A stretch of 64,000 nt of DNA from Acidobacteriota bacterium (GCA_965263035.1 OZ253580.1:352001-416000), one strand, 5' to 3'. Positions 8,948 through 24,411 are shown, numbered from the stretch's first letter. Notes: a model not told the origin generated them from the letters alone. Program-made: numbers and translations.

Positions 8948-9166
8948 ATGCTGACAATCCGACTTCCGGCCGAGATTGATGCCCGTCTCGAGCGTCTCGC
9001 AGAAGAGGCAGGCAAGACCAAGAACGACTACGCCCGTGAAGCCATCCTGGAGAAGATTGAGGAGATGGAAGACTTGCAACTGGCCGGGCAGGTTTTGGAA
9101 CGAGTTCGCAAGGGGGAAGACAGAGTCTTGAGTTCCGAACAGATGTGGCGTGAGTTGGAAGATTGA
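8948..9166 (+). CDS. Ribbon-helix-helix antitoxin (RelB/StbD/CopG-like)
   Basis: MLTIRLPAEIDARLERLA..GKTKNDYAREAI...EDLQLA. Confidence 0.8.
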   Translation: MLTIRLPAEIDARLERLAEEAGKTKNDYAREAILEKIEEMEDLQLAGQVLERVRKGEDRVLSSEQMWRELED

Positions 9167-9245
9167 GTATGCTGAGAGTGTCCAGAAGCCTGTTGGAAAG
9201 CAGAATCGGCAAACTCAACAGCGTCTTCGGGATTACTTGGAATTT
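9150..9245 (+). pseudogene. Truncated RelE/StbE toxin remnant
   Basis: WKIEYAESVQKPVGKQNRQTQQRLRDYLE resembles a RelE N-terminus overlapping the antitoxin; the catalytic C-terminal part (YRVGDYR-like) is absent. Confidence 0.6.
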
Positions 9246-9299
9246 CCAATGAAACGTGGAGGAAGAGTGGGGGACAAGAATGTCCCCTGCTATGAGCCG

Positions 9300-10016
9300 T
9301 CATTCAGCGGTGGCTGGATGGACCGTCGTGGCCGGGGCCTTCCCCAGCAGGGAACCTTTTTCCAGATGATGGTTGATCCGGGCGAAAGCCGCGGCGCGGG
9401 GATCGTGTGTGACCATGACAATGGTTTTGCCGAAGTCCCGGTTCAGGGCCTCCAGCACGTTGAGGATGTCTCCAGCCGAGTCGGCGTCCAGGTCACCGGT
9501 CGGTTCGTCGGCCAGGATGAAGGTGGGATCGGTGACGATTGCCCGGGCGATCGCTACCCGCTGTTCCTCGCCTCCGCTGAGCTGGCGCGGATAGTGGCGT
9601 ATTCGGTCCGACAGGTTCACCAGTCTCAGGGCGGTCTCCACATGCTCTCGCCGTTCCTGTCGGGAGAGTGAGGTCAGCAGCAAGGGGAGTTCGACGTTCT
9701 CGAAGGCGGTCAGGACAGGGATCAGGTTGAAGTGCTGAAACACGAATCCCACGTGTTCATTGCGCCAGACAGCCAGTTCGTCTTCGCTGAGTGCAGTCAG
9801 ATCTTCTCCCAGGACCTGGAGTTGGCCGCCGGTCGGCCGGTCAATCCCGGCAATCAGGTTGAGCAGCGTGCTCTTTCCGGAGCCGGACGGTCCCATCAGG
9901 CTGATGAAGTCCTGATCGCGGATATCCAAGGTGATGTCCTTCAGAGCGACGACCTGGACCGTATCACGCTGGAACACGCGGCTCAGATTGCGCATTTCGA
10001 TCAATACCTTCGTCAT
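9300..10016 (-). CDS. ABC transporter ATP-binding protein (MacB/LolD family)
   Basis: [29 protein letters not shown]. Confidence 0.95.
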
Positions 10017-10267
10017 CCCGTGTCCTCAGCGGTAGTGTCTTCAGCCCCGGAATCGGTCCGCTTGCGAAAGAAAGTGACCTGAACATCCATCTCCGGCCGA
10101 AGGTACTCATCCGGTTCCAGAATCTGGACCTTCACCTGGATCGTGGCTCGCTGCCGGTTGGCCTCGGGTGCAATCTCTTCCAACTCACATTCGTATTCCC
10201 GCGCGGGATAGGCGATGGGAGACATCCTGCACCCGTTTTCGGGCGAGATGTTGTGAAAATCGGATTG
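10013..10267 (-). pseudogene. 3' fragment of the interrupted periplasmic adaptor (HlyD/MacA-family) gene
   Basis: QSDFHNISPENG...EIAPEANRQRATIQVKVQILEPDEYLRPEMDVQVTF is a typical MFP C-terminus; its stop overlaps the ATPase start. Confidence 0.9.
10257..10267 (+). repeat. attL core AAATCGGATTG
   Basis: Identical to 20813-20823; lies exactly at the break point of the adaptor gene. Confidence 0.9.
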
Positions 10268-10302
10268 AGGGTCGCGAAGTATAATAAGGGGGAGGACACA
10301 AC

Positions 10303-10479
10303 ATGACGACGAGGACAGCGCACGAGATTCTGATGGAGGTCCGACGGGACCCGAACGCGACGAGGGAAGATCGGGACTTCGCCTATCGAAAGTACCTGCG
10401 GGCACTCACGGTCCAGTTCAAGCCGGCCTGGAAGACGGCCATTCGGACGGTCGGGACCCGACGGGAAAGTGCCAGATGA
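10303..10479 (+). CDS. 58-aa hypothetical protein upstream of the integrase
   Basis: GGAGG RBS, ATG 10303, MTTRTAHEILMEVRRDPNATREDRDFAYRKYLRALTVQFKPAWKTAIRTVGTRRESAR; stop overlaps the integrase start (ATGA). Confidence 0.6.
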   Translation: MTTRTAHEILMEVRRDPNATREDRDFAYRKYLRALTVQFKPAWKTAIRTVGTRRESAR

Positions 10480-11504
10480 GCGGACGGGCCAACGGAAACG
10501 TTCTCCGATTCCCCGGCAGGCGGGGCTGCCTGTTCTCGGACGAGCAGATGCGGGAGATGAGGGCCGCCGACCCGGCCAAGGTCCTCCAGACGCCAGCCGC
10601 GTTGCGGCGGTCCACGTTGGAGCGCAGCTTCCTGTCGGTCAGCAACTCCACCTCCAAGACCTACAAGGCCGCGTTGCGCGGGCTCGACAAATGGCTCGAC
10701 GACCGGGACCTCGACGACGGGCTCTTGGCCGACTACGCGTTGAGCCTCCACCGGGACGGGAAGGCCCCGAGCACGATCTCGACCGTGCTGGCGGCCGCGA
10801 GGTTCCGGGCCAAGGCCCTGAGGCAGCCGAACCCCGTCGGACCGGAGACGGAAGCCGTGAGGCGTCACGTCCGGCGGGAGGGCGCCGGACGCGGCAAGGG
10901 ACAGGCCAACCCCCTGACCCGGGACGAGGTGGAGCGGGTGATCTCGACGGCGGAGCGGGACGGCTCGGTCTGGGCGATCCGGGACGCGGCGCTGGTCGCC
11001 GCCGCGTTCTACTGCGGGCTCAGGTCCGCCGAGGTCACGGCCGTCAAGGTTCGGGACCTGGAGTTCCGGGACGACGGGACCGGGCTCCTCTCGATCCGGC
11101 AGTCCAAGAGCGACCAGTTCGGGCGCGGCAAGACGGTCCCCATCCCGAGGCCGGCAGCCCGTCGGATCTCGGCGTGGCTCCGCCTCGCCGGCATCGAAGC
11201 GGGACCGGTGTTCCCGGCAATCCAGACGAACGGGATCGGCGGGGCGCCGCCGAAGGTCCTGGACAGGGCGATGCACAAGGTCCACACGGGTAGGATCATC
11301 CGGGACCGGGCCAAGGCCGCCGGGTTTCCCGGGATCAGCTCCCACTCGATGCGAAGGTCCTTCGCCCAGCACCTGAGCCGGGAGGGATACGAGACCCACG
11401 TCATCGCGGAGGCCGGTCGGTGGTCCGACCTGAGCATGGTCCTGCGGTACACGCAGGGGACCCGGGCCGCCCGGTCCGCCGTCCTCTCGGCGTTCGACGA
11501 GTAG
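10476..11504 (+). CDS. Tyrosine recombinase/integrase (Cre-like)
   Basis: RDAAL...GLRSAEV, SKSDQFG, HSMRR, GRWS...MVLRY catalytic R-K-H-R-W-Y set. Confidence 0.92.
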   Translation: MSGRANGNVLRFPGRRGCLFSDEQMREMRAADPAKVLQTPAALRRSTLERSFLSVSNSTSKTYKAALRGLDKWLDDRDLDDGLLADYALSLHRDGKAPSTISTVLAAARFRAKALRQPNPVGPETEAVRRHVRREGAGRGKGQANPLTRDEVERVISTAERDGSVWAIRDAALVAAAFYCGLRSAEVTAVKVRDLEFRDDGTGLLSIRQSKSDQFGRGKTVPIPRPAARRISAWLRLAGIEAGPVFPAIQTNGIGGAPPKVLDRAMHKVHTGRIIRDRAKAAGFPGISSHSMRRSFAQHLSREGYETHVIAEAGRWSDLSMVLRYTQGTRAARSAVLSAFDE

Positions 11505-12105
11505 ACCCCCCGGCGGGCTGTCACCGCAACACGATATGATTGTTCGCGTGGCCGATTTTCTCCTTTTCTGGCCACAAGCTGCCTCTCGGTTGGGGAGGGA
11601 ATTTGATAGCCTCCCTCCCCGATCCGCCGGGAGGGAGTATAATAGGCTATGCGGGTCGCCACCCTTCCCCCGGCGATCCGTTTCGTGGCCCCGGGAACTC
11701 GCCGATTTCATTGCACAATCTTGGTTCCCTCCCGGGGCCTTTCCCCCTTCTGTCGTGCCGTTGGGGTAAAGTGGTTTCGCAATGAAATTGGCGAGACGCT
11801 TACCGGTCGGCAACGGCCACTTGCACCCAGCGCCAATCGAGCACGCCGTTACTGGGGGGGAGATCCCGCAGCGGCAGCCCAAGATCCACGGACGGAAGCG
11901 GGCTAGGGGAGATCGTCAGGTCTCAGAGAAATCCGTCTAGTCGCGGCTGCTGACGCAGTGAAACGCGGCCCCACGACGGCCCCTGCATATCAGGGTCCGG
12001 GCAAGGATCTGCACCTCGCAAGTCTTGGAACCTTCGGGTTTCGGGCGGGGAGGGGTAGATCCTCGCCCACTCAAACCCCGCATATTCGGATTATGGGGAT
12101 TAAGG
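11505..12105. other. Inverted-repeat-rich non-coding region (candidate ncRNA, origin or packaging site)
   Basis: 17-bp stem 11698-11714/11779-11795, 10-bp stem 11687-11696/11730-11739 and further hairpins; no convincing ORF. Confidence 0.5.
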
Positions 12106-12201
12106 GGGAATGGGGAACGAGAGAGAGAAAGAGTATGTCGCCCGTCGAATCACCGTCTGGGTCAAGACCACCGAGCTAAGGGGGAAGGAGGGAGGTCGAA
12201 C

Positions 12202-12345
12202 ATGATGGACTTGTTCAGGCCGTCGTGCCGAATCCCGGGATTTACGGCCAAATCCCTCAGTGGTATCAGCCGAGGGCAAGGGGACCCCTATGAATTCTCC
12301 CCGGAAAGCAGGGGGCGGTCGTGTGGGGGGTCTTCGCACACATGA
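12202..12345 (+). CDS. 47-aa micro-ORF coupled to terL
   Basis: Strong RBS (AAGGAGGGAGG), ATG 12202, stop overlaps the terL ATG (ATGA). Confidence 0.4.
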   Translation: MMDLFRPSCRIPGFTAKSLSGISRGQGDPYEFSPESRGRSCGGSSHT

Positions 12346-13805
12346 GCCGCCGCCGGGTCGAGTGGCCCCCCTCGATAGACCTCAGGCCGTTCCAACGCCG
12401 GTTCCTGTCCAATCTGCTAAGGCCAAGCACCAGAACCGCCGTCCTCTCGATGCCGAGGGGGAACGGGAAGTCGACCTTGCTCGCCCACGTTTGCCGGAGG
12501 GTCATGGACCCCGGAGACAAGCTGTTCGCCGACGGCGAGGACGTCTACCTCGTCGCCAACAGCCTCCAGCAGGCCGTCAGGACGACGTTCGGGATCTTCC
12601 GGTCGATGATGCCGGACGACCCGTTGGCGTACCGCTTCACCGAGAACACACAGGCCGCCCAATGCCTTCACGTCCGCTCGCGGACCAAGTTGACGGTCCT
12701 CCCCGCCAGCGGCAAATCGGCCTCCGGGATCGTACGGGCCCGGCTGGTCGTCTGCGACGAGCCGGCCGCCTGGCACGCCGCCGCCGGCCTGACGATGTTC
12801 GAGTCGATCCAGGGGGCAATCGGCAAGCCGGGGTCCCGGCTGAAGGTCGTCTACATCGGCACCCGAAGTATCGGCGGCGCCGCCCCCCCGGACCCCGAGA
12901 GCTGGTGGCCGACCTTGATCCGGGAGGGGTCCCGGGGGTTGACCTACGTCCAATTTCACCAGGGGGACCCCGACCGGTGGGACCAGTGGCAGAACATCCG
13001 CCGGGCGAATCCCCTCATGAGCCTCTTCGCCGAGTCGAGGGCCGTCCTGTTGGAGGAGCGGGACAAGGCCCGGACCGATCCCCGGCTCCGTGCGGCGTTC
13101 CTCTCGGATCGGCTGAACGTCCCCCGTGGGGACTCCTCCGCGGTGCTCTTGACGGTGGACGACTGGCGGCGGGTGCTCGACCGGCCCGTGGCGCCGAGCT
13201 CGGGCCGCCCCGTCTGCGGGGTGGATTTGGGCGGCGGACGGGCCTGGTCGAGTGCCGTGGCCGTCTGGCCGGGCGGCAGGACGGAGGCGGTCGCGCTGGC
13301 CCCCGGGATACCGGACCTCGAACGGCAGGAGAAACGGGACGGGGTGACCCCGGGCACCTATCGGCGGCTGGCCGACATCGGCGCCCTCGTCGTGGCCGAA
13401 GGCCTCAGGGTGCCGCCCGTCTCCCTGCTGGTGGCTCACGTGCGGGAATGGGGACCCGCCGCCATCGTCTGCGACCGGTTCAGGTACTCCGAGTTGCAGG
13501 ACTCGAACCCCGGATGCCCGATCGTCCCACGGATCAACAGGTGGTCGAACAGCACGGAGGACATAAGGTGCCTCCGTCGCGGGTGCCTCGACGGACCGCT
13601 CTCGGTGGCCGCTGGCTCCCGGGCCCTGGTCGAGGCGAGCCTGAGGGTCGCGACCGTCGTCAACGACGATTCGGGGAACTCCCGGCTGCGGAAGTCGAGC
13701 AACAACAAGGCCCGGGACGACGTGGCCCAGAGTTGGCTGCTGGCCGCCGGCGCCAACGCCCGCAGGAGGCCCGCCAGGACGCCCAGGATCTCCTTGGTGG
13801 GCTAA
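12342..13805 (+). CDS. terL: Terminase large subunit
   Basis: LRPFQ adenine motif, PRGNGKS Walker A, VVCDE Walker B, IGT motif III, nuclease GVDLG...CDRF...RDD. Confidence 0.88.
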   Translation: MSRRRVEWPPSIDLRPFQRRFLSNLLRPSTRTAVLSMPRGNGKSTLLAHVCRRVMDPGDKLFADGEDVYLVANSLQQAVRTTFGIFRSMMPDDPLAYRFTENTQAAQCLHVRSRTKLTVLPASGKSASGIVRARLVVCDEPAAWHAAAGLTMFESIQGAIGKPGSRLKVVYIGTRSIGGAAPPDPESWWPTLIREGSRGLTYVQFHQGDPDRWDQWQNIRRANPLMSLFAESRAVLLEERDKARTDPRLRAAFLSDRLNVPRGDSSAVLLTVDDWRRVLDRPVAPSSGRPVCGVDLGGGRAWSSAVAVWPGGRTEAVALAPGIPDLERQEKRDGVTPGTYRRLADIGALVVAEGLRVPPVSLLVAHVREWGPAAIVCDRFRYSELQDSNPGCPIVPRINRWSNSTEDIRCLRRGCLDGPLSVAAGSRALVEASLRVATVVNDDSGNSRLRKSSNNKARDDVAQSWLLAAGANARRRPARTPRISLVG

Positions 13806-13920
13806 CCCGGAGAATTCATGGCATAATGACTTGAGCTTGACAATTTGAACCGCATGTGAGAGCCCGCCGCCGCTGATTGGCTGCCACCTCTTTAGCCGTG
13901 ACCACCCGGGAGGGGGAGCC

Positions 13921-14187
13921 TTGACCCGCAAAGAAGCCAACGATCGAATCTACTCGTCGCGACGGTGGCGACGCCTCCGCCTGTCGGTCCTCGACCGTGC
14001 CGGCTGGCGCTGCCGTAAGTGCGGGCGGGCCGGACGCTTGGAGGTCCACCACAAGCACCCTGTTCGCGAGGGCGGCGAAGCCTGGTGCGAATCCAACCTC
14101 CAGCCCCTCTGCCGTACCTGCCACTTCCGCACCCATGTTCCCCTGCCGGCTGACGTGGCCGAGTGGAGGGCCTTCGCCGGTGCCTAA
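13921..14187 (+). CDS. HNH endonuclease (HK97 gp74-like packaging cofactor)
   Basis: YSSRRWRRLR..VLDR..CRKC...EVHH...GG...NLQPLCRTCH. Confidence 0.9.
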   Translation: MTRKEANDRIYSSRRWRRLRLSVLDRAGWRCRKCGRAGRLEVHHKHPVREGGEAWCESNLQPLCRTCHFRTHVPLPADVAEWRAFAGA

Positions 14188-14950
14188 CTTGAGTAGGATA
14201 TGGCGGCTCCACCCATTGACCGGCGGGCAGCCCAGCAGCCACTCGCTCTCGATTTGGGTCGAGACGCTGGGGTTGCGGGGGGAGCCGTACGGGGACCGTC
14301 TGCAAAGCGCGGACCCGCCCAGTTTCATCTCCCCCGCCAGCGGCTCCGAAGAGGCGCCGTCCCCCCGGACGAAACGGGTCTACACCCTGTCCCGCATGGG
14401 CGACCCCGTGCTCGTGGACGTGGGGGACCCGATCGGCTTCGAGACGCTTCGCATACGCCACCGGGACCTGTCCACCCACTCGATCTTCAGCGACGAGGAC
14501 GGCCGGGAGTGGCATGTCGAGAAGTTCGCCGACCCCGACGGGCGGCGGCGCTGGACGCAGGTCGAGCTTGTCGCCTACCGGATCGCCCCACCAGACGAGG
14601 TCCCCTCGTTCACGGCCCCGACGGGCTGGACGCTGGAGGAGGGCGGGGACCCGGTCCAATTGCTGACCGTGTCGGCCCGTGTGCGGACCCAGGACGCCTA
14701 CCACGAATTCGTCGGGCTCCGGTTCGGCCACGTGAACGCGTGGACTGCTACCGGCTTCGTCGTCGGGGAGTACCCCGTCGAACGGCCTGACGGCCTTGAG
14801 GGGACATTGATGTTCACCCAGGGGGCCGACCCCCAGGAAGGTCTCGGGGCGGGGGAGGACTGGCCCGGAGACGGAGCCTGCCTCATCGACGGAATACTAG
14901 CGTCCCGGGCCCTGGAGCTCGGGGCCGTCATTCGAATCAAGGGAACCTAA
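14180..14950 (+). CDS. Hypothetical virion protein; N-half weakly resembles head-closure proteins
   Basis: GTG 14180 with GGAGG RBS overlapping the HNH end; LRIRHRDL...DEDGREWHVEKFADPDGRRRWTQVEL. Confidence 0.5.
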   Translation: MPNLSRIWRLHPLTGGQPSSHSLSIWVETLGLRGEPYGDRLQSADPPSFISPASGSEEAPSPRTKRVYTLSRMGDPVLVDVGDPIGFETLRIRHRDLSTHSIFSDEDGREWHVEKFADPDGRRRWTQVELVAYRIAPPDEVPSFTAPTGWTLEEGGDPVQLLTVSARVRTQDAYHEFVGLRFGHVNAWTATGFVVGEYPVERPDGLEGTLMFTQGADPQEGLGAGEDWPGDGACLIDGILASRALELGAVIRIKGT

Positions 14951-14963
14951 ATGGAGGAGTGAC

Positions 14964-16190
14964 ATGACCAAAGAAACACGCGAGGCGCTGCTGAAAGCCA
15001 GCGAGATTCGCACCAAGATCAACATGGAGCAGGCCAAGTCCGAGCCGAATTCCGAGACCCTGGAGACCCTGCGAAAGCAGTCCCTGGACGCGGAGGGGGA
15101 ACTCCGGGAGGCCCTGGCCAAGGACGAGGACGACGAGTCCATCGCCAAGACCCCGGACCGCGAGGAGCGGGACCGCCTGGAGCTGCGGTCCAAGTCCCGG
15201 TTCCATCGGTTCGTCAGGGCGGCGGTTCTCGGCAGGGAGGTTGACGGCGCGGAGGCCGAGTATGCCGACTCCCTGGGCTGCCCCGGACTGGTCCCGCTGG
15301 ACCTGTTCGAGACCCGGAGCCGGGAGCAGCGAGCGGTCACTCCGGGCCCGGCCGACGGCGACGTGAACAAGACCACGGCTCGGATCGTTCCGGCCCTCTT
15401 CGACCGGTCGGTTGCGCCGTGGCTGGGAATCGCCATGCCCACGGTCGGAACGGGCATCCAGTCCTTCCCGGTGCTGAGCACCAGCCTGACCGGCGGACCC
15501 AAGGCCGAGGACGCGGCAGCCGCGGAGACGGCGGGCGCGTTCACCGTCACCGACGCCGACCCTCGGCGGCTCACCGGCTCGTTCAAGATCCGCAAGGAGG
15601 ACATCGCCAAGATGTCGGGCCTCGAGGAGTCCCTCCGGTCCAACCTGTCCAGCGTCCTGAGCGACGAACTGGACAAGCAGGTCGTCAACGGCACCGCACC
15701 GCACCTGAACGGCATCCTTGAGCAGCTCACCAACCCCACGGCCCCGGCTGCTTCGGCGGAGAGCTTTGTCCGATACGTCACTGCCTTCGCCTCGCACATC
15801 GACGGGTTGCACGCTGTCCAGGAAACGGACGTGCGCGGTCTCGTCGGTCGGCAAACGCTCCGGCACATGGCTGCCACTTTCGGTGGCGCGGCAGTCCGTG
15901 GGGACCGCTCGGCAGCCGAGTACCTGCGCACGTCGTTCGGCGGGGTGCGGGCCACGAGGCGGATCGCGGACCCGGCGAGCAACGTCCAGCAGGTCATCAT
16001 CCGTCGGTCCAACCCGGCAGGCGACCGGGTGGCCGTGGCTCCCGTCTGGAGCGGCTTGGAGTTGATCCGCGACCCGTACACCGAGGCTGGCAAGGGCCAG
16101 ATCGTCGTGACCGGGATCGTCCTGGTCGGCGGGGTCGTCCTGCTTCGGTCCGGCGCATTCGTGCAGGACTCGTTCAGACTGGCCGCGTGA
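14964..16190 (+). CDS. HK97-fold major capsid protein
   Basis: N-terminal helical delta/scaffold-like domain; ELDKQVVNGT...LNGIL; ELIRDPYTEAGKGQIVVT...VLLRSGAF. Confidence 0.85.
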   Translation: MTKETREALLKASEIRTKINMEQAKSEPNSETLETLRKQSLDAEGELREALAKDEDDESIAKTPDREERDRLELRSKSRFHRFVRAAVLGREVDGAEAEYADSLGCPGLVPLDLFETRSREQRAVTPGPADGDVNKTTARIVPALFDRSVAPWLGIAMPTVGTGIQSFPVLSTSLTGGPKAEDAAAAETAGAFTVTDADPRRLTGSFKIRKEDIAKMSGLEESLRSNLSSVLSDELDKQVVNGTAPHLNGILEQLTNPTAPAASAESFVRYVTAFASHIDGLHAVQETDVRGLVGRQTLRHMAATFGGAAVRGDRSAAEYLRTSFGGVRATRRIADPASNVQQVIIRRSNPAGDRVAVAPVWSGLELIRDPYTEAGKGQIVVTGIVLVGGVVLLRSGAFVQDSFRLAA

Positions 16191-16738
16191 TGCCAATCAG
16201 CATCCTGAGGGGTCCCGCCGGCGCGGGCAAGTCGCAGTGGTTAAGGCGGAACGTTGGGGATGGCGAGATCATCCTCGACACCACGCCGATTTGGGCTGCG
16301 TTGACCAACGTCGAGCGGGACCCAGAGGGCCGTTACCGGGTTCGCCTCTTGGGAGAACCCGGATTGCGGGCGGCCCAATTCGCCAAGTGGAGCACCTTGG
16401 CCTTCGCAGCCAGGGAGAACCTGCCGGCTTGGTTCACCATCGCCAACTCCTCACCGGAGGCCATCACCCGCGTCCAGCAGGTCGTGGAGCGTGCCGGCGG
16501 GAGGATCGGGCGGATACGGACCGAGGACCCCGGCTTGGATACGGCCCTGGATCGGCTGGTCATCCCCAAGGCGTCCGTACCGGACGGCTGGGAGATCGTC
16601 GAGGACGGGGACGGCCGGAAGTACCTGCTCGACGAGTGCGACAACGCCCTCGCCAAGTGGTACGCCCGGAGCCCGGTTGCGGCGCGGATCGTCGCGAAGA
16701 AATACGGGCTGGCGTCCCGGCGCTCCGGGAGGAGGTAG
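16187..16738 (+). CDS. Small P-loop NTPase (AAA_33/kinase-like)
   Basis: ILRGPAGAGKSQW...GEIILDT. Confidence 0.65.
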   Translation: MMPISILRGPAGAGKSQWLRRNVGDGEIILDTTPIWAALTNVERDPEGRYRVRLLGEPGLRAAQFAKWSTLAFAARENLPAWFTIANSSPEAITRVQQVVERAGGRIGRIRTEDPGLDTALDRLVIPKASVPDGWEIVEDGDGRKYLLDECDNALAKWYARSPVAARIVAKKYGLASRRSGRR

Positions 16739-16740
16739 AC

Positions 16741-17193
16741 ATGGTGGAGAAGATTCATCGAAACGTCGAGATGGAACTGAGGGAAGGCCGCAACGGGCCC
16801 ATGCTCCACGGGACGATCGTCCAAGAGGGACGGGCCGCCACCGGTGGCCGGGCCGAGTTGTTCGCCCCCGGGAGCGTCACCTGGCCGGAGAACGGCATCG
16901 GGATCAAGGTCGGCCACGACGGGACGGAGGAGAGCCGGACCTACCCCGTGAGGTCCCCGAACGGAGAGATCAGGATCGCGGCCAAGGCCACCGAGCGGAT
17001 GGTCCGGGCCGTCCGGGAGGGCAAGACGGGGATGAGCGTCGAGTTCATCGCCTTGAGTGAGAACCGGACCAAGGGCGGGGTCAGGGAGCTCACCCGTGCC
17101 CTGGTGGACGCGGCGGCCATGACGGCGACCCCCGAGTACCAGCAGGGGCGGGCCGAGCTCCGGGCCAAGCGGGGGTACCAGATATGGCTGTGA
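16741..17193 (+). CDS. Prohead maturation protease (HK97/S78-like)
   Basis: GGAGG RBS, ATG 16741; ELFAPGS, GHD (His), GMSVEF (Ser), RELTRA..TPEY. Confidence 0.75.
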   Translation: MVEKIHRNVEMELREGRNGPMLHGTIVQEGRAATGGRAELFAPGSVTWPENGIGIKVGHDGTEESRTYPVRSPNGEIRIAAKATERMVRAVREGKTGMSVEFIALSENRTKGGVRELTRALVDAAAMTATPEYQQGRAELRAKRGYQIWL

Positions 17194-17498
17194 ATGCCTC
17201 CCAGTTGGCCCTGGCCCTACGCATCGTCGCCGACGAGGGGGATAGCCTGCCATCGGGCCAGACGGCCGTCCTGACGCGAATCCTGGCCGTTTCCGTCGCC
17301 TTGGTCGAGAAGCACGTCGGCGAGGGCGACCTCGACACGGACGTGGAGGACGAGGCCGTGATTCGCCTGTCCGCGTACTTGTTCGACACCGACCCGGTAC
17401 GGTCCAGGGGGAACGCGATGGTCAACAGCGGGTGCGCCCATCTGATCGACCAGTTCCGAACCCGGCGATCCGCCGTGGTCGAGGAGGACGACGAATGA
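17184..17498 (+). CDS. Head-tail connector/adaptor (gp6/gp15-like)
   Basis: ~100-aa helical protein, EAVIRLSAYLFD...SGCAHLIDQFR; lies among the head genes. Confidence 0.65.
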   Translation: MAVNASQLALALRIVADEGDSLPSGQTAVLTRILAVSVALVEKHVGEGDLDTDVEDEAVIRLSAYLFDTDPVRSRGNAMVNSGCAHLIDQFRTRRSAVVEEDDE

Positions 17499-18493
17499 GG
17501 TTCCAAGGCCGGGAGGTCCGGCTACCGTGGGAGCAGCGCTCCACAAGCTACTCGGAACTGATCGTGGCCGGTCTCCAGGCCCGGGCCGGGGGGGATGCCA
17601 ACGCGGACCTGCTGGCCACCGTCGAGGCGGCCTGCGGGATCTGGGAGAGGTCCCTGGCTGCTGGACGGTCATCGGTCCTCAGTCCGGCGCAACTGGCGAT
17701 GATCGGGCGCTCCCTGCTGCTCACCGGCGAGTCGGTCTGGTGGAAGTCCATGGGGTCCGGCCTGATGCCGGTCTCCCAGTGGGACCTGTCGGGCAAGTCG
17801 GCGGCCCAGAGCCGGTGGACCTACAAGCTCACCCTCTCGGTGCCGGATGGGACGATCCTCAAGGACGCCCATTCCAAACGGGTCCTCCACGTGCGGATCG
17901 GCAGCACCCCGGACCGGCCATGGGAGGGCACGAGCCCCCTGGCCCGCTCCGCGGCCACCAGGGACGCGCTGAGGGCGATCGAGGCGTCACTCCGCAAGAG
18001 CCACCAGGGACCGATCGGGGACATTTTGCCCGTGCCGGACCCCACCGACGAGAACCTGAATTCGGCGCTGCTCGGACTCAACGGCAAGACGCTGCTGGTG
18101 GAGCACTCGGAACTCGGCCTGCCGGGAGAGGGTCAGTCCGGCCGGACGACCTGGAACCCGAGACGGATCGGGCCGGCACCCTCGGAGGGAACGGTAGCGG
18201 CCCGGGAACCACTGCGACGTGACCTGCTGGAGGCTGCCGGCCTTCCCCCGAGCATGGTGGCACCGTCCACGGCCAACAGCGCCAGGGAGGGCCTGCGCCA
18301 GTTCCTCTGGACCACCGTCTCCCCGGTCGTCGGGTTGATCTCGGCGGAGTTGGAGCGGGTCGGGCTCGACCCCGAGATCGACATGAGCGGCCTGAACGCC
18401 AGCGACCTGGCGGGCCGCGCCCGGGCACTGGGCCAGATGGTCAAGGCCGGGGTTCCGCTCGACGAGGCCCGGAGGCTCACCGGCATGGAATGA
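17495..18493 (+). CDS. Portal protein (compact, 332 aa)
   Basis: VEAAC..., SLLLTGES, VLHVR...GTSPL, AGLPPSMV, TTVSP...AELE, DEARRLTG match HK97-type portal motifs. Confidence 0.75.
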   Translation: MRFQGREVRLPWEQRSTSYSELIVAGLQARAGGDANADLLATVEAACGIWERSLAAGRSSVLSPAQLAMIGRSLLLTGESVWWKSMGSGLMPVSQWDLSGKSAAQSRWTYKLTLSVPDGTILKDAHSKRVLHVRIGSTPDRPWEGTSPLARSAATRDALRAIEASLRKSHQGPIGDILPVPDPTDENLNSALLGLNGKTLLVEHSELGLPGEGQSGRTTWNPRRIGPAPSEGTVAAREPLRRDLLEAAGLPPSMVAPSTANSAREGLRQFLWTTVSPVVGLISAELERVGLDPEIDMSGLNASDLAGRARALGQMVKAGVPLDEARRLTGME

Positions 18494-18583
18494 GGAATGA
18501 GGCTTGCGGCCACTCGCCGCCGGAGGCATGGGAAAGGTGCTCCGTCAACAAGAACCTACCCACAGCATTCTCCTTTTTCGGTT

Positions 18584-18612
18584 GGGGAGGGGGGCGACCC
18601 CCTCCCCGTTTT
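18584..18612 (+). terminator. Probable intrinsic terminator after the portal gene
   Basis: GGGGAGGGGG-GCGA-CCCCCTCCCC followed by GTTTT. Confidence 0.55.
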
Positions 18613-18623
18613 CCCCCGACCTG

Positions 18624-18995
18624 ATGGCGAAGAACCCCGAGACCGCGGAGCGGATGCGGAGGCTGTGGGCCGACCCGGAGTTCCGGGCCAAGCGGTCCGC
18701 CGCCATCAAGCGGGCCCACTCGAAACCCGACCTCCGGGCCAAGCGCCGGAGGATCACCACGAAACTCTGGCGGGACCCGGCCTACCGGGAAAGGGCCAGC
18801 GCCGCTTTGAGGGAGGCCCAGAACCGGCCGGAGGTCCGGCAGAGGAAGTCGGAGTCCATCCGGCGGGCCCTGGCCGCTCCCGAGCAGCGGGAGCGCCTGG
18901 GGAGGCCGCGCAGGCGGAAGGTCAGCGACTTCGCGGCCGCGTGGTTCGGGCTGGACGAGCCCTATGTCCCGGAGGGGGGTAGTGTCCTAATTTGA
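18624..18995 (+). CDS. Basic helical 17-aa repeat protein (start uncertain; possibly 18528)
   Basis: Five units such as MRRLWADPEFRAKRSAA and TTKLWRDPAYRERASAA. Confidence 0.6.
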   Translation: MAKNPETAERMRRLWADPEFRAKRSAAIKRAHSKPDLRAKRRRITTKLWRDPAYRERASAALREAQNRPEVRQRKSESIRRALAAPEQRERLGRPRRRKVSDFAAAWFGLDEPYVPEGGSVLI

Positions 18996-19107
18996 ATCTG
19001 GCGCAGAAACTCTCCGGGCTCGGCCCTGGAGGAAGGGACCAACGGACACTCAGAGCAGCGGCGGATCAGGATCGCTTCCCGACAGCGTGATTCGGCTGGA
19101 GTCCGGT

Positions 19108-19136
19108 TTGACCATTACAATCCCGGCGCATAGAAT
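19108..19136 (+). promoter_or_regulatory. Sigma70-type promoter of the cargo operon
   Basis: TTGACC-N17-TAGAAT upstream of a GGAGG RBS and TTG 19177. Confidence 0.7.
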
Positions 19137-19176
19137 CAGCGGAAATTGACCGTTCTACCATGGGAGGAGGGTAGTT

Positions 19177-19560
19177 TTGAAGAAACAAAGAAGAACGATC
19201 AACGGTTCCGGTTCAAAATTGAAGCCACCCGAAAAGATACCTATTCAGTGGGTTCACGCAAAGGAATCTCGTTTGGTACCATATCACGGAGTGTTCGGGG
19301 GCCTCATACCCAGGGGGGATCTTCACGTCTCGATTTATGCTGAACAGATGCCCGACCCCGAGCCTGGACAGAATTTTCTCCAGCAGATTGAGGGTCAGAC
19401 AGGTCGGTACAAGGAAGAAAACAAACCCCGGAAGGCATCTCCGATCATCCGTGAGGTCCAGGTTCGATTTGTTATTCCACGCAGTCTGGTGCGCGATGTT
19501 GCGGACTGGTTCGCGCAGAAAGCGAACGAGATTGATCAATTCCCTTCTACCCCAGTGTAA
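19177..19560 (+). CDS. Hypothetical protein, cargo gene 1
   Basis: GVFGGLIPRGDLHVSIYAE...IIREVQVRF...WF; RBS present; lower GC than the head genes. Confidence 0.7.
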   Translation: MKKQRRTINGSGSKLKPPEKIPIQWVHAKESRLVPYHGVFGGLIPRGDLHVSIYAEQMPDPEPGQNFLQQIEGQTGRYKEENKPRKASPIIREVQVRFVIPRSLVRDVADWFAQKANEIDQFPSTPV

Positions 19561-19585
19561 GCAGCCGGACAGAAAAGGAGGTCCG

Positions 19586-20170
19586 ATGACCAAAGAATAC
19601 AAGATGCCCAAATCTACGGCGGATGCTTCCTCCCTTCCGACAGTATTCTTGCTAGTGGGGTCGTTCGTGGCCGTGTGTCCGCTCTACGGAAATCATATAT
19701 CACATAGGGTGGACGGGTCGGGTCCGGAATCACTGACCGCCCCGGAAGTGATTATGAAGTCAGCGACCGATTACCCCAAGGAGCCGAGAGACCCGATTGA
19801 GGGCCCACCTAACGAAGGGGCTCTTCGGATGGTCGAGGAGATTTCAGAGGACTGCGCCATGGATGATTGGGACGGTGAAGGCGCAGACCGGGTCCCCTCG
19901 GAATCGGTCGTGATTGCTCGTAATCTCGTGGCGAATCTGCCCCCCCATGCTCTTACGACCGGACTTGACATCGATGCTACCCCGTTCGGCTCTATCGACT
20001 TCGAGTGGGTGCTGGAGACGGAAGCCATGTTGAACATCCTGATTCTCCCTTCAGGAGAGCTTGGTTTTGCTTATTCCGTTCGTGAGGACGTGGGTGAAGG
20101 CAAAGTGAGATGGGAAGGCTCGATTCCGACTCCTATTGCGGCGGCACTCAACAGAGTATTTGAGCAGTGA
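19586..20170 (+). CDS. Acidic hypothetical protein with WDGxGA motif, cargo gene 2 (candidate antitoxin)
   Basis: AAGGAGG RBS, ATG 19586; DDWDGEGA...LP...IDATPFGSIDFEW. Confidence 0.7.
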   Translation: MTKEYKMPKSTADASSLPTVFLLVGSFVAVCPLYGNHISHRVDGSGPESLTAPEVIMKSATDYPKEPRDPIEGPPNEGALRMVEEISEDCAMDDWDGEGADRVPSESVVIARNLVANLPPHALTTGLDIDATPFGSIDFEWVLETEAMLNILILPSGELGFAYSVREDVGEGKVRWEGSIPTPIAAALNRVFEQ

Positions 20171-20565
20171 GTGGACGGGATTCAGCCCTTGCTCGATTTG
20201 CAGTATTCAGAAAGCAGATAACGCCGAGCCGAACGTTGCCGAAGCTATTCCGGCCAGATAAGCATAGGAAGGTTTCTGTCTTTCGGATTCAGGACAAGAC
20301 TTGCAAAGAGGTCGTATCGGTAGGGGTCGGAGTCGCAAGATCACATCGTGACTCTAGGAACTTATACGGTTGGGCGGAATTGACCTACCGACAGATTCAG
20401 AACATTGGACTATCCGTTGACGATGATGAGATTCCGAAGGACCACTCGCACATCGTGGGATGGCCTGACGATGAGGAGAGGTCTCTACGGTATCGACAGA
20501 GTCTTGCCAAACAGGCTGCGCGAATATTGCTTCCAAAACCTATTCCTGTACGGAACAGCATATAA
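20167..20565 (+). CDS. Candidate ADP-ribosyltransferase/RES-like toxin, cargo gene 3
   Basis: LAR...FRPD...VSVFR...AEL...GLSV..D...HSHIVGWP...LA pattern; basic protein; start overlaps gene 2 (GTGA). Confidence 0.55.
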   Translation: MSGRDSALARFAVFRKQITPSRTLPKLFRPDKHRKVSVFRIQDKTCKEVVSVGVGVARSHRDSRNLYGWAELTYRQIQNIGLSVDDDEIPKDHSHIVGWPDDEERSLRYRQSLAKQAARILLPKPIPVRNSI

Positions 20566-20766
20566 TTGGTGCGAGTCAGCCCTTTCCCTTTGCGGCCATC
20601 GGCAAGAGTTGGTCCACTGACCCCGCCAGACCCGCCTCCAGAATACCATCGGGTGGGCGATGAGAGAAGGGAGAACCCGGCACAGTTGAAACCCATTCCC
20701 TAGTAAGATCTAGTCGGGGTCGGCTATTAACACCCGGCCCCTCTCCCACCCCCTCGAAATTCCCGT

Positions 20767-20795
20767 TTTACAAGGTCGGACGGATGTTGTATAAT
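20767..20795 (+). promoter_or_regulatory. Outward-facing sigma70-type promoter just inside attR
   Basis: TTTACA-N17-TATAAT ending 17 bp before the att core. Confidence 0.7.
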
Positions 20796-20812
20796 TCCCT
20801 TGGTTGTCGTAT

Positions 20813-20823
20813 AAATCGGATTG
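20813..20823 (+). repeat. attR core AAATCGGATTG
   Basis: Identical to 10257-10267. Confidence 0.9.
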
Positions 20824-21726
20824 GCTGATATCCAGCTCCGCCTGCAGATCCCGCAGATCCGCCAACGCCACCAGGACGGCTCCCCCCATAAAGTAGGCCG
20901 AGACCATTTCACCGACTTCAACGACTCGTTCCAGAATGGTGCCGCTGACGGGTGCCCGGATCTCCGTCTCCTGCAGTTGGGTTTGCCAGTACCGGATGGC
21001 CGCCTGGCTTCGCTCGAGCTCGGCACGGGCAGCCTGGATCCGCTCGGTTCGGGGGCCGATCTCCAGGAGCCGGTGGTTTTTCTCGGCGACGGCAACGGCG
21101 GCCTTGGCCATGTCGCGGCGAGACCGGGCATTGTCGACCCGTTGTTGAGCGATGACACCACTTTCGATGAGTTGGCTGAAGCGACGATACTCGAGATCGG
21201 CGATGTCGAATTCGGCACGGCTTCTTTCCAGCTCCGCCTGTGCGATCTCAATCTCTTCCGGCCGTGACCCGGTTTCCAGTTCGGTGAGGCGGGCCCGTGC
21301 CGAGTGAGAATCGGCTTCTGCCTGCTGGAGTTGGGCTCGGAATTCGGCGTCCTCCAGCCGGACCAGCAATTGGCCCTTTTCGACTCGATCCGATTTATCG
21401 ACTCCGACCCAGGCGACCTTCCCCATAATTCGGGAACTGACTTCGATCCGGTGATGAGGGACGATGTAGCCCGAGACGATCAGCAACGGCCCTTCCCGAT
21501 CCGACGCCCCATCGGCCGCAGCACCGGCAGGGGCAACCGTGGCCGGGTCCGCCCGGACCTCGGCCCGCGCCGCATCGGGCGTCTGCCGGGAAAGGTTGTG
21601 GAAAAGCAGCGCAGTCAGGACGGCGCCCGCCAGGAAGGCCGCCAGTCCGATCAGCCACAAGTTGGGGGACGGCCTGGAACGCCGGCGGTTGCGGTCGATG
21701 CGCAACGCTTTCAAATCTTTTTCCAT
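20813..21726 (-). pseudogene. 5' fragment of the interrupted periplasmic adaptor (HlyD/MacA-family) gene
   Basis: TM anchor, lipoyl halves (VSSRIMGKV...VEKGQLLVRL; IRAPVSGTI), coiled coil; similarity stops at ELDISQSD, the att core. Confidence 0.9.
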
Positions 21727-22892
21727 CAGTCTCGCATCACATCGATCAAGCGCACCCGGGCGGCTCGTGCCGCCGGGAGCAAGCCACCGGCAATCCCCAC
21801 CAGGCTGACGAATAGAATCGCTTTGAAGAGAATTTCGGGAGTGATTCGAAAATGGAACAAGACTTCGCTGAAACTGGCGAAATTCGTGGTCCCCGTGGTA
21901 ATGCCGTGGACCGGCAGGGCCATGACACAACCCACGACTCCTCCCAGCAACGCCAGAAAAACGGACTCCGCCAGGAAGGATGCCAGGATGCTCCGTCTGC
22001 GAAATCCCAGTGCCCGCAAGGTCCCAATCTCTTTGAACCGGGCCATGACGGTACCGTACATCATGTTCATGGCGGCAAAGCAGGAACCGATTCCCATGAC
22101 CACCGCGATGAAGATGCCCAACGCCTTGAGTCCCACGGAGGATATCGTCTGTCCCTCGTAATATTCGGTTTGGGGAATGGCTTGCAGTTCGATGTTCCGA
22201 TCCTCCTCGATCCGTTTCGCCAGAGCCGCTCGAGCCTGTGCATTATTGGCGCGCACCAGGAAAGAGGTGTAGATCGGTCGATTCCAGGCTAACGCAATCT
22301 CGTCGTAGTCCCCCCAGATTTCGGAATCGTAGGCCGTGCCACCAGCATCGAAAATACCCACCACGGACCATTCAGTCTGCGCGATGGCCAAGGTATCGCC
22401 CAGCTTCATGTTCTTGAAGCGACGCGACAGTGAACGGCTCACGATCAGTTCCCGCACGCCTTTTGCATGGCGCCGTCCCTCGACGATCCGGACTTCCGGC
22501 CGCATTTCGAAGCCCCGGTTGCCGGTGCCGCGCACGACAATGTTCGAAGTCTCGTTTGCTCCCGCAATGCGCTCATGATTGATGACGACGATGAGCTCGC
22601 CGGAAGCCCACGGCTCATCGTCTTCGTCGCGAGCCACCTCCGGCAGAAAGCGGACCTTCGGAAAGAGGTTCCGGTCCAGATAGCTGTTGGTCTCGTTCTG
22701 GGAACCTTGCCGAATGACCACCAGGTCATTGGGGTTTCCGGTGTTGACGAAGGTCGAGTCGAGGCCTTCGATGAGGGCCATCATCGCGACCAGAATGGCC
22801 ACTGTGAACCCAATTCCCAATGCGGTCATCAGGGTGCCGACTCGCCTTACCCAGAGACTCCGCAGGTTGTATCGAATGGGGATCTTCATCAC
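21726..22892 (-). CDS. ABC transporter permease (MacB/FtsX family)
   Basis: EIGTLRALGF motif; 4-TM topology with a large periplasmic domain. Confidence 0.92.
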   Translation of the reverse strand: MMKIPIRYNLRSLWVRRVGTLMTALGIGFTVAILVAMMALIEGLDSTFVNTGNPNDLVVIRQGSQNETNSYLDRNLFPKVRFLPEVARDEDDEPWASGELIVVINHERIAGANETSNIVVRGTGNRGFEMRPEVRIVEGRRHAKGVRELIVSRSLSRRFKNMKLGDTLAIAQTEWSVVGIFDAGGTAYDSEIWGDYDEIALAWNRPIYTSFLVRANNAQARAALAKRIEEDRNIELQAIPQTEYYEGQTISSVGLKALGIFIAVVMGIGSCFAAMNMMYGTVMARFKEIGTLRALGFRRRSILASFLAESVFLALLGGVVGCVMALPVHGITTGTTNFASFSEVLFHFRITPEILFKAILFVSLVGIAGGLLPAARAARVRLIDVMRD

Positions 22893-24118: not shown

Positions 24119-24411
24119 GTTCGTACTCGGCACCCCGGTCCAGGAGCCTGCGCCGCAGAAATTGAGCTACTGCGAAAGCGGTAGAATCGGTCCATATTTC
24201 CTCGATTTCTCGGCGAATAGAACAACTATGCACCTCCAAATCGAGAAAATCTGGCCTCGATTCCCCACTTTCTCGCTACGATCATTTCTACCGCACAGAC
24301 TCCTAGCCCGAAGTTCTCAACCGGCCGCTGAGTATGTGCCGAAAATGATTTTATCTTGAGTCGACGACCGGCGTTCAATTGGAGTCTCGCCAGCCGTGAC
24401 CGAGTCGGGGG

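Follow-up and report, generated by a model that had tools for sequence, protein, structure and literature searches.

An integrative element carrying phage head genes splits the adaptor gene of a MacAB-like transporter operon in an Acidobacteriota genome

Introduction

When a mobile element sits inside a gene that its exact excision would restore, does the arrangement serve as a genetic switch, or is it the mark of a recent insertion? The question is raised by a locus of a soil-type Acidobacteriota bacterium (GCA_965263035.1), in which an integrated element, hereafter E1, interrupts the adaptor gene of a MacAB-like ABC transporter operon; coordinates below are those of the window, the whole 64-kb stretch of DNA analysed (OZ253580.1:352001-416000). 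The original prediction, made from the window, left both options standing. Gene-interrupting, excisable elements that act as switches include skin in sigK and SPbeta in spsM of Bacillus. The Listeria comK prophage (PMC7397523) and the Sa3int phages in hlb of S. aureus (PMC6597384, PMC12607152) are reported to be further elements of this kind.

Results

E1 is bounded by AAATCGGATTG, an exact 11-bp direct repeat with copies at 10257-10267 and 20813-20823, the only two in the 64-kb window, where 0.03 copies are expected and none of 100 shuffles contained two or more. On neither side do the bases beside the two copies agree, which fixes the length of the repeat at exactly 11 bp; it is quasi-palindromic, as had been noted, with inverted arms AATC and GATT around a single G. 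The 10,545 bp between the copies (10268-20812, plus strand) split the adaptor of a permease-permease-adaptor-ATPase operon that lies on the minus strand, opposite to the genes of the element.

In transcriptional order, the operon comprises permease 1 (22967-24133, 388 aa; Pfam FtsX, 8.3e-18, and MacB_PCD, 2.3e-9), permease 2 (21726-22892, 388 aa; MacB_PCD, 2.2e-17, and FtsX, 5.5e-13; a layout shared by the congeners), the adaptor 5' part, E1, the adaptor 3' part and a 238-aa ABC ATPase (9300-10016; ABC_tran, 8.3e-35; LolD/DevA/MacB-like). The stop codon of permease 2 overlaps the adaptor start and the ATPase start overlaps the adaptor stop, and the insert cuts the ATPase gene off from the rest of the operon by 10.5 kb. 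The operon resembles MacAB-type exporters in its MacB_PCD and FtsX permeases, HlyD-family adaptor, MacB/LolD-like ATPase and overlapping genes, but it has two permease genes and a separate ATPase, whereas MacB is a fusion. Identity with MacA or MacB at the equivalog level was rejected (57.5 bits against 342 for the MacA model; 209.5 against 966 for the MacB model with the ATPase), and the ATPase fell below every NCBIfam equivalog cut-off.

The adaptor 5' part (20824-21726, minus strand; Pfam HlyD_D23 and HlyD_3) starts with the ATG at 21726 and, together with the attL-like core copy that joins it (20813-20823, an exact 11-mer), holds codons 1-304 and 2 nt; over residues 1-304 it matches the uninterrupted 385-aa protein of G007, the nearest congener, at 93% identity. 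Past the core, the frame (ORF 20710-21930) continues for another 34, unrelated codons before it stops at 20710 (tail at 20710-20812, minus strand), a tail with no counterpart in the adaptor proteins of the congeners. The original prediction was thus right that E1 supplies no replacement 3' end: the adaptor is cut at codon 305 and lacks its final 81 residues. The adaptor 3' part (10013-10256, minus strand), joined by the attR-like core copy (10257-10267, again an exact 11-mer), contains the last nucleotide of codon 305, codons 306-385 and the stop, matches HlyD_D23 at profile positions 152-212 and aligns with the C-terminus of the congeners' adaptor. Both halves are intact, as claimed, with no stops or frameshifts and 80-93% identity to intact orthologues, and their 914 and 244 nt add up to 1158 nt.

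Frame restoration was judged against the natural intact genes of the congeners. All eight carry an uninterrupted adaptor of the predicted length and junction (385 aa, reading ...ISQSDFHNISP... across the site), which bears out the proposal that exact recombination at the core restores the frame. G007, 93% identical, has the identical 11-bp core at the same place. The operon is widely kept: 30 of the 41 genomes of the order, the present one included, have a full-length match at 48% identity or more.

Contigs assembled from sequencing runs contain both states of the site. The interrupted locus is covered by a single, independent short-read contig of run X1 (9000-22500), and contigs of run X5, from another study, cross both junctions, each with 0 differences. 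In public run X6, also from another study, a contig of depth 94 skips E1 and connects 10256 with 20813, the two sides sharing 11 letters; the strain concerned is about 2-3% diverged and its site is empty. In run X3, which probably comes from the source sample, two contigs stop precisely at 20813-20842, the branch point expected for empty-site sequence, and some cells or co-resident strains may therefore be without the insert. The empty-site joint was absent among the contigs listed for X1, X3 and X5, assembled contigs being prone to drop rare variants.

Comparison of codon changes, which the original prediction had proposed as a check, did not come out in favour of maintenance: the adaptor on the branch of this genome has 7 non-synonymous and 5 synonymous changes, compared with 9:20 in the flanking permease and ATPase genes and 5:11 in the G007 adaptor, a pattern that leans towards relaxation, with counts too small for significance.

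E1 has a G+C content of 68-73% over 10.5-19 kb, compared with 56-63% in the flanks, and its genes all lie on the plus strand. At the left end, a 58-codon ORF (10303-10479; coding-like GC3, no Pfam match) overlaps the start of an inward-facing gene for a 342-aa tyrosine integrase (10476-11504; Pfam Phage_integrase, 3.3e-18; PHROG integrase, 8.3e-31). The integrase scored 66.5 bits with PF00589 (cut-off 27.1) over profile positions 3-167 of 172, and its translation contains GLRSAE, HSMRR and LRY, which we take to be the conserved Arg, His-x-x-Arg and Tyr motifs of tyrosine recombinases; no relative above 48% identity was found in 76 genomes of the order. There follows a stretch of about 0.8 kb of lower G+C with no convincing ORF (11505-12320), in which three ORFs tried had no Pfam match and no Rfam match was found.

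The head-packaging module begins with the large terminase subunit, TerL (12321-13805, 494 aa; PHROG terminase large subunit, 3.7e-35), and an 88-aa HNH endonuclease (13921-14187; Pfam HNH, 5.9e-9, 36.4 bits against a cut-off of 21.4), whose gene has positional counterparts in the HNH genes of sibling element E4 and of locus L059. An ORF of uncertain start (14396-14950; coding-like GC3, no match in Pfam, PHROG, NCBIfam or PADLOC) precedes a 408-aa HK97-type major capsid protein (14964-16190; Pfam Phage_capsid, 1.9e-9; PHROG major head, 3e-5). The next gene encodes a 183-aa P-loop protein (16187-16738), which has tblastn matches in E4, E5b, E6, L049, L050 and L059 and is conserved beside the capsid gene both in siblings and in distant elements. 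It was assigned to no family and has one weak PHROG match to a small terminase (7.8e-4). A 150-aa ORF (16741-17193) is assigned by position to the prohead-protease slot of E3 and E4, where Peptidase_S78 was matched at 1.8e-13 and 6.4e-5, respectively; the E1 ORF itself had no Pfam match, and its BLASTP comparison with the E3 protease was not significant. The portal protein (17432-18493; Pfam Phage_portal, 6.8e-11; PHROG portal, 1.2e-8) may start upstream of 17432, its frame being open from 17246. It is followed by a basic repeat-rich protein (18504-18995) with two database relatives, the product of the window itself and a 269-aa protein with PF01541; the small ORFs at 17184-17498 and 18504-18995 had no family match in Pfam or PHROG and almost no relatives. 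Near the right end, two cargo ORFs of 194 and 132 aa (19586-20565) have a G+C content of 52-56% and no match in PADLOC or Pfam searches; the 194-aa product has four relatives, none named.

The integrase, TerL, HNH, capsid, P-loop and portal genes are all full length and free of stops. Searches with Pfam, PHROG, NCBIfam and PADLOC found no tail, holin/lysis or defence families in E1, and only about 3.3 kb of it is without assignment, which leaves no space for tail genes. Small terminase, head-tail connector, regulator and replication genes were not detected with Pfam, PHROG or NCBIfam. Genes for a tape measure (PF10145) and a sheath (PF04984) were not found in the genome, so a resident helper is not evident.

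A strong match to the sigma-70 promoter consensus (TTTACA, 17 nt, TATAAT; 20767-20795, plus strand) lies 17 nt inside the right end of E1 and points outward. It agrees at 11 of 12 positions, for which the background rate is 0.003 per kb per strand. Outward sites of this kind, which are consensus matches rather than mapped starts, lie 7-30 nt from the integrase-distal boundary in three of the six elements described below (E1, E5b and E6; background for at least 10 of 12 matches, 0.016 per kb per strand) and were not found in E3, E4 and E5a. The integrase gene lies within about 25-300 nt of the opposite end in all six, and in E1 the integrase operon starts 35 nt from the left end.

E1 is one of six sibling elements in this genome, each of 9.2-12.2 kb, the two longest of which each contain a 1.7-1.8-kb multi-copy IS-like insert. 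They share integrase, TerL, capsid and portal, and in most cases the P-loop protein as well, with identities of 25-53%. All six are missing from each of the five congeners tested, and E1 from all eight. Four are inserted within protein-coding genes, one at a start codon and one in an intergenic site. Apart from E1 in the adaptor, comparison with the congeners places two of them in SSF symporter genes, another in an ORF of at least 743 aa and a fourth at the start of a luciferase-like monooxygenase gene, the fifth being the intergenic one; no target is a tRNA gene. The three other siblings within genes split otherwise intact ones, with halves 88-96% identical to the proteins of congeners. A sibling region near 17-23 kb of the genome is degraded, with a stop in the capsid gene and TerL in pieces.

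Beyond this genome, the compact module is also present in L050, L052, L057 and L059, with host genes and a recombinase at its flanks, and its range takes in other Acidobacteriota, Alphaproteobacteria and one Dehalococcoidia MAG; TerL, capsid and portal follow one another in the same order in 8 of the 11 loci from other taxa. Compared with deposited phages, TerL reaches at most 23% identity and the capsid has no match.

Discussion

The elements described here form a family of integrative elements of about 10 kb that combine a tyrosine integrase with a head-packaging module (TerL, HNH, HK97-type capsid, P-loop protein, portal and probably a protease), and in which neither tail or lysis genes nor recognisable replication genes were found. 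In kind, E1 appears to be a capsid-forming, phage-satellite-like element. Like the capsid-forming PICIs (cfPICI) as defined for SatelliteFinder (PMC10085698), E1 is an integrative island of small size that carries genes for integrase, HNH, TerL, portal and capsid and none for tail or holin, and several copies can share one genome. By contrast with the cfPICI model in the same source, an AlpA/MerR/Stl regulator, a primase-replicase, a small terminase and a head-tail adaptor or connector were not detected in E1 with Pfam, PHROG and NCBIfam profiles. The gene order of E1, TerL-HNH-capsid-P-loop-(protease)-portal, also differs, as do the hosts of its family: cfPICI with all 11 core components are described there from Proteobacteria only, with variants in Firmicutes (PMC10085698). 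E1 also shares with the Streptomyces satellites of the Mulch and Flayer systems the possession of its own encapsidation genes (PMC10690885).

How did the adaptor gene come to be split? The integrase would have recombined the 11-bp core of a circular element with the identical 11 bp in the adaptor gene, which would have doubled the core and cut the adaptor at codon 305; exact excision would then repair the gene as a side effect of site-specific integration. We consider it likely that E1 is a recent, lineage-specific and probably inactivating insertion of an intact mobile element, and that repair by excision is a by-product rather than a host-programmed switch. The transporter is presumably off or crippled, since its adaptor ends in 34 foreign codons in place of its last 81 residues and its ATPase gene lies 10.5 kb away. 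Recency is favoured by the empty site in all eight congeners and the X6 strain, the G+C contrast with the flanks, the integrase relatives at no more than 48% identity and the five lineage-specific siblings. Neither an excised circle nor packaged DNA nor a particle was seen, and our case for the mobility of E1 is drawn from comparison.

A promoter that reads towards the integrase gene only after excision and circularisation is described for the clc island of Pseudomonas (Pcirc), and several IS circles have junction promoters of this type. The outward sites of E1, E5b and E6 resemble these junction promoters, here as consensus matches only. In E1, the site at 20767-20795 would be the sole strong promoter-like site able to serve the integrase, and it would face that gene in the excised circle only, in which case the integrase would be strongly made from the circle, whether excised or newly arrived, and would fall nearly silent upon integration.

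It is rather unlikely that E1 is instead a decayed prophage unable to excise, with the adaptor a young pseudogene. E1 could be defective, because the searches turned up neither a small terminase nor a connector, regulator or replication gene, and a 0.8-kb stretch beside the integrase looks non-coding; the missing tail and lysis genes, the visibly degraded sibling region and the lack of an excision product in assembled contigs would fit as well. However, its integrase, TerL, HNH, capsid, P-loop and portal genes are full length, the six elements and those in other phyla hold the same gene set and size, which random decay would not yield, and six lineage-specific insertions point to recent activity.

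A reversible switch of the active-lysogeny type, the second option of the original prediction, appears quite improbable. The element would be kept in the adaptor and excise by condition or at a steady low rate, turning the exporter back on until reintegration or loss, with on/off variation in the population. The exact in-frame restoration, the two undamaged and well-conserved halves, the wide conservation of the operon in the order and the three siblings that split intact genes are all compatible with this scheme, and the X3 contigs that break at the core boundary might come from empty-site molecules in the source sample, but equally from a co-resident strain without the insert. E1 shares with the comK prophage, Sa3int, skin and SPbeta the form of an integrase element in an ORF with a short duplicated core, no replacement gene end and a frame restored by exact excision. 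In those systems, however, the element is found in the same gene in one strain after another, and its excision is linked with a host programme or niche, whereas the E1 site is empty in all eight congeners and in the close X6 strain, and excision was not seen in assembled contigs, from which rare variants are lost. The integrase, moreover, is apparently cut off from a strong promoter when integrated, and the codon changes, few as they are, lean towards relaxation. Thus, with the site not conserved and no excision product among the contigs, a host-programmed switch finds no positive support, and of the two original options the recent insertion is the favoured one.

Undamaged halves in a widely kept operon would also suit selection for reversibility.

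That the insert was misjoined into the operon during assembly is a negligible prospect, nothing having been found in its favour, against contigs from X1 and X5 with 0 differences and a clean 11-bp target duplication at the junctions.

To conclude, the splitting of the adaptor gene is best read as the recent arrival of a probably intact mobile element, whose exact excision would mend the transporter as a by-product of site-specific integration. The insertion event is an ordinary one, and the element family to which E1 belongs is moderately novel.

An integrated element splits the adaptor gene of an ABC transporter operon

We identified an element of 10,545 bp, E1 (10268–20812), whose plus-strand genes separate the two parts of the adaptor gene in a MacAB-like ABC transporter operon on the minus strand. 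Two FtsX/MacB_PCD permease genes (22967–24133 and 21726–22892) are followed by the 5′ part of the HlyD-family adaptor gene, which reads from 21726 to an 11-bp core and then through 34 unrelated codons that end in a stop at 20710. On the other side of E1 lie the remaining 244 nt of the adaptor gene (10256–10013), next to the ABC ATPase gene (10016–9300), the start of which overlaps the adaptor stop. The window contains exactly two copies of the core, AAATCGGATTG, at 10257–10267 and 20813–20823, compared with 0.03 matches expected by chance and two copies in none of 100 shuffles; because the neighboring bases of the two copies differ on both sides, the repeat is exactly 11 bp long. An assembly artefact is excluded by the assembled (Logan) contigs of two public sequencing runs from different studies, one of which (X1, short reads, possibly the source of the window's DNA) covers 9000–22500 and the other (X5) crosses both junctions, in each case with no difference.

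The original prediction placed the two core copies at these positions, gave the operon order as permease-permease-adaptor-ATPase, described an unrelated tail on the integrated adaptor and two intact halves, and held that joining the halves restores the reading frame. All of this was borne out. No damage was found in either half, and the frame, which we judged by comparing both adaptor pieces with natural intact genes rather than with a constructed joined gene, is correct, as is the arithmetic: the orthologous operon, which the prediction proposed to examine in relatives, is uninterrupted in all eight same-genus genomes, each with a 385-aa adaptor that reads ...ISQSDFHNISP... across the site and a permease-adaptor-ATPase layout with overlapping stops and starts. 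The adaptor of the nearest congener (G007) is 93% identical and carries the identical 11-bp core at the site, and the core site of the remaining congeners differs at synonymous positions. Full-length matches to the operon with at least 48% identity were detected in 30 of 41 genomes of the order, counting the source genome.

The empty site was also recovered from a run of a third study (X6), in which ~2–3% of the flank positions differ from the window. A contig with a depth of 94 runs straight from 10256 to 20813, the two sides having 11 letters in common; the gene is thus uninterrupted in a close relative, and the contig matches the inferred boundaries exactly. Depths in this run were 108–220 for the flanks and 0–12 for element-like contigs, which are more diverged.

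In the integrated state, the adaptor is cut short by 81 residues at its C-terminus, a segment that Pfam assigns to the end part of the barrel-sandwich domain, and the ATPase has lost translational coupling to the rest of the operon, so that the pump is probably off. None of the transporter components reached an NCBIfam equivalog cut-off. At the left end of E1, a weak promoter-like match on the minus strand (10309–10281; TCGTCA, 17 nt, TATTAT; 9 of 12) points outward, to the stranded 3′ part of the adaptor gene and the ATPase gene; it could keep the ATPase expressed, at a match level within chance expectation.

E1 encodes a capsid and packaging module and no recognizable tail

All recognized E1 genes are full length and lie on the plus strand. 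A 58-codon ORF starts 35 nt inside the left end and reads inward with the gene for a tyrosine integrase (10476–11504), which is followed by genes for the large terminase TerL (12321–13805), an HNH endonuclease (13921–14187), an HK97-type major capsid protein (14964–16190) and a portal (17432–18493), all assigned by family searches. For the longer ORF that overlaps the HNH gene in another frame (13997–14950), a candidate HNH assignment drew only sub-threshold Atlas leads (best 0.78) and was rejected in favor of 13921–14187; tblastx comparisons of the element regions yielded mostly noise except for the HNH signal. The capsid gene is followed by a gene for a P-loop protein (16187–16738) and a 150-codon ORF (16741–17193), which holds the position of a Peptidase_S78 prohead protease in two related elements and showed no tie to that family in Pfam or in a BLASTP comparison with the protease of one of them (E3). 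The product of 18504–18995 is basic, carries repeated motifs rich in Pro, Glu, Arg and Lys and has, besides itself, a single database relative, a 269-aa protein with PF01541; it may be a DNA-binding protein in place of a small terminase or regulator. The right 1.8 kb of E1 (52–56% G+C) contains two ORFs with no assigned family, and the body of the element has 68–73% G+C vs 56–63% in the flanks.

Family profiles detected no tail, lysis, replication, regulator or small-terminase match in the E1 ORFs searched, PADLOC found nothing in nine E1 ORFs, and Rfam found nothing in 9000–22000. Typical tail modules are larger than the ~3.3 kb of E1 that carries no assignment, which is therefore too little to hold one.

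Five sibling elements in the same genome

The source genome contains five further elements with integrase, TerL, capsid, usually the P-loop protein, and portal genes in conserved order, encoding proteins 25–53% identical to those of E1, as well as one additional, visibly degraded region. Their boundaries were determined by searching the 20-kb stretches around each against five congeners, all five of which lack every one of these elements. On contig C1, they occupy ~1782764–1794500 (E3; ~11.7 kb), ~4878305–4887605 (~9.3 kb), ~5098870–5108053 (~9.2 kb), ~5137178–5149366 (E5b; ~12.2 kb) and ~5348769–5358661 (~9.9 kb). GC3-based gene calling performed poorly on those with lower G+C. The 11.7- and 12.2-kb elements each harbor an IS-like, multi-copy insert of 1.7–1.8 kb (~11828–13600 of stretch L062, within E3, and ~14346–16007 of L064, within E5b) that is 82–86% identical to copies in two congeners (G005 and G007). 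In another stretch around a sibling (L061, 19404–19580; C1 ~5364.4 kb), we observed a repeat of ~165 bp that is present in very many copies, at 83–99% identity, in all five congeners searched.

No tRNA gene was found at the corresponding empty sites of the siblings in congeners. The elements at ~5098870–5108053 and ~5348769–5358661 each interrupt a sodium:solute symporter gene; the two genes differ, and so does the insertion point along the protein. The other three lie in an uncharacterized ORF (at least 743 aa), at the very start of a luciferase-like monooxygenase gene, within its first codons, and in one intergenic spacer. Thus, with E1 counted, four of the six insertions split a gene (three among the siblings, with one further sibling at a start codon) and three of the six targets are transporter components. 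The halves of the sibling-split genes are 88–96% identical to the congener's protein. Two symporter targets among five would be rare by chance from the gene count, as a post hoc observation, and may be explained by tolerance of insertions in a redundant family: PF00474 has 49 matches in this genome, intact genes and fragments combined.

The E1 core (C1 362257) resembles that of E3, AAATGCCGGTTTT (C1 1782755), which is an exact 13-bp repeat. The integrases of the two elements are 45% identical and, judging from this resemblance, may share a recognition motif.

Related head-only modules across phyla

Members of the integrase clade (E ≤ 1e-40) are present in all eight congeners and in none of the 67 other genomes of the order. 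No close relative of the E1 integrase itself was identified, the best match in 76 genomes of the order being 48% identical, and JGI metagenome contigs likewise contained no close relative, with two loci at 31–32%. Of 401 genomes sampled across the phylum, 6 matched the capsid profile, the source genome among them, with at most four candidates scored per genome; these integrase and capsid tallies, like that for the operon, include genome G016, on which none of the conclusions rests. A TerL alignment search recovered 11 loci in named MAGs (Bryobacterales, Vicinamibacterales, a Dehalococcoidia bacterium, Alphaproteobacteria and Paracoccaceae), eight of which have collinear TerL, capsid and portal genes. 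Four loci were scanned with Pfam (60 of 84 called ORFs, omitting those furthest from the module). In each, a module of ~10–11 kb lies between host genes and adjoins a recombinase, which is a tyrosine integrase in three and a large serine recombinase in one (16493–18085 of L052, from a Vicinamibacterales MAG); hence, the head module moves between recombinase types. An HTH_36 or AAA_25 gene is located near the recombinase in two of the four, and no tail families were detected among the ORFs scanned. In deposited phage genomes, TerL identity did not exceed 23% and no match to the capsid protein was found, and in IMG/VR a related TerL was found on only two fragmentary contigs (7.3 and 5.9 kb).

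Random decay is disfavored by the constancy of gene set and size, both among copies and between phyla. This constancy points to a class of compact elements that would build their own DNA-filled heads and rely on another source for the remaining functions. Searches of the source genome for tape-measure (PF10145) and sheath (PF04984) genes, two families and too few to exclude a helper, found neither, so that any helper is not obviously a resident one.

Capsid-forming PICIs (cfPICIs), as defined in PMC10085698, are the closest described class. Like them, E1 has integrase, HNH, TerL, portal and capsid genes and no tail genes; unlike them, it has no detected regulator, primase-replicase or small terminase, and the candidates for a head-tail connector, 17184–17498 and 18504–18995, have too few database relatives to align. 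E1 thus probably works like a cfPICI-type satellite and, for lack of the regulator, primase-replicase and small terminase, is not classed as a member. It also differs from marine VEIMEs, which, according to PMC9618062, encode no major capsid genes. As far as the literature searched shows, the element family has not been described for these phyla.

A putative integrase promoter at the far end

No promoter-like site precedes the 58-codon ORF and the integrase gene of E1. The best promoter match in 15.6 kb (20767–20795; TTTACA, 17 nt, TATAAT; 11 of 12) is on the integrase's strand, 17 nt inside the right end and pointing outward, and circularization of E1 would place it ~60 nt upstream of the 58-codon ORF. 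Outward sites no more than 30 nt from the integrase-distal end are present in siblings E5b (11 of 12) and E6 (10 of 12) and were not found by the same scan in E3, E4 or E5a, against a background of 0.016 matches of at least 10 of 12 per kb per strand. In all six elements, the integrase gene starts ~25–300 nt from an end and reads inward. If this consensus match is a functional promoter, most integrase expression would come from the circle, with a low level from the integrated copy, and in integrated E1 the promoter would read antisense into the truncated adaptor and permease genes. Such an arrangement is known for the clc island and for the junctions of IS circles.

A probable recent insertion rather than a demonstrated switch

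The original prediction offered either a recent insertion or an excision-controlled transporter. The evidence favors the first: an intact site-specific element has inserted in this lineage only, probably recently. A role as an excision switch for the transporter is not demonstrated. The undamaged adaptor halves favor a switch, or at least do not speak against it, as does the wide occurrence of the operon in the order. X3 is a run from the sample that also gave X1; two of its consecutive contigs, one with its end at 20842 and the other with its start at 20813, share a 30-nt overlap that begins at the first base of the core, which would be the branch point of an empty-site sequence. This break could stem from excised molecules or from a co-resident strain with no insert; no joint, empty-site contig is listed in X3, and assembled contigs drop rare variants.

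However, the site is empty in all eight congeners and in the X6 strain, the base composition of E1 is foreign, no close relative of its integrase was found among the genomes examined, and the five siblings are equally lineage-specific, two of them in a gene family with enough members to fit the survival of insertions where paralogues make them tolerable. What defines switch elements is that they stay paired with one gene and that a host program governs their excision, as in the Bacillus cases. Unlike known switch elements, among them the comK prophage (PMC7397523) and Sa3int phages (PMC6597384, PMC12607152), E1 has not kept its pairing with the adaptor across congeners. Selection on the halves, another proposed check, gave a partial answer: branch-specific non-synonymous/synonymous codon changes were 7/5 in the interrupted adaptor, 9/20 in the flanking permease and ATPase genes and 5/11 in the intact adaptor of G007, a hint of relaxed constraint from small counts that is far from significant.

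The gene-splitting event is thus of a known kind, an ordinary outcome of site-specific integration, and on present evidence it is no new switch; reversibility comes with being an element of this type and is not a demonstrated function. A more ambitious joint reading would see E1 and its siblings as undescribed cross-phylum satellites of ~10 kb, tail-less and capsid-forming, that sit inside protein-coding rather than tRNA genes, fire a far-end integrase promoter only from the circle and, by exact excision, turn host membrane-transport genes reversibly on and off at the population level. We consider this full combination improbable.

To conclude, recent insertion by an intact element best accounts for the split gene, and the wider and more interesting result is the element family: compact, head-only, often inserted in genes, spanning phyla and possibly carrying a circle-junction promoter. 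A single genome carries six intact head-only elements of ~10 kb, four of which split genes, and the compact module is common to other Acidobacteriota, Alphaproteobacteria and a Dehalococcoidia MAG, with a capsid gene unmatched in deposited phages. If these elements are capsid-forming satellites, they extend this lifestyle to soil phyla in which SatelliteFinder reported none. If true, this would also provide a test case for integrase expression across a circle junction and would mean that much of the lineage-specific gene disruption in slow-growing soil bacteria can come from satellites.
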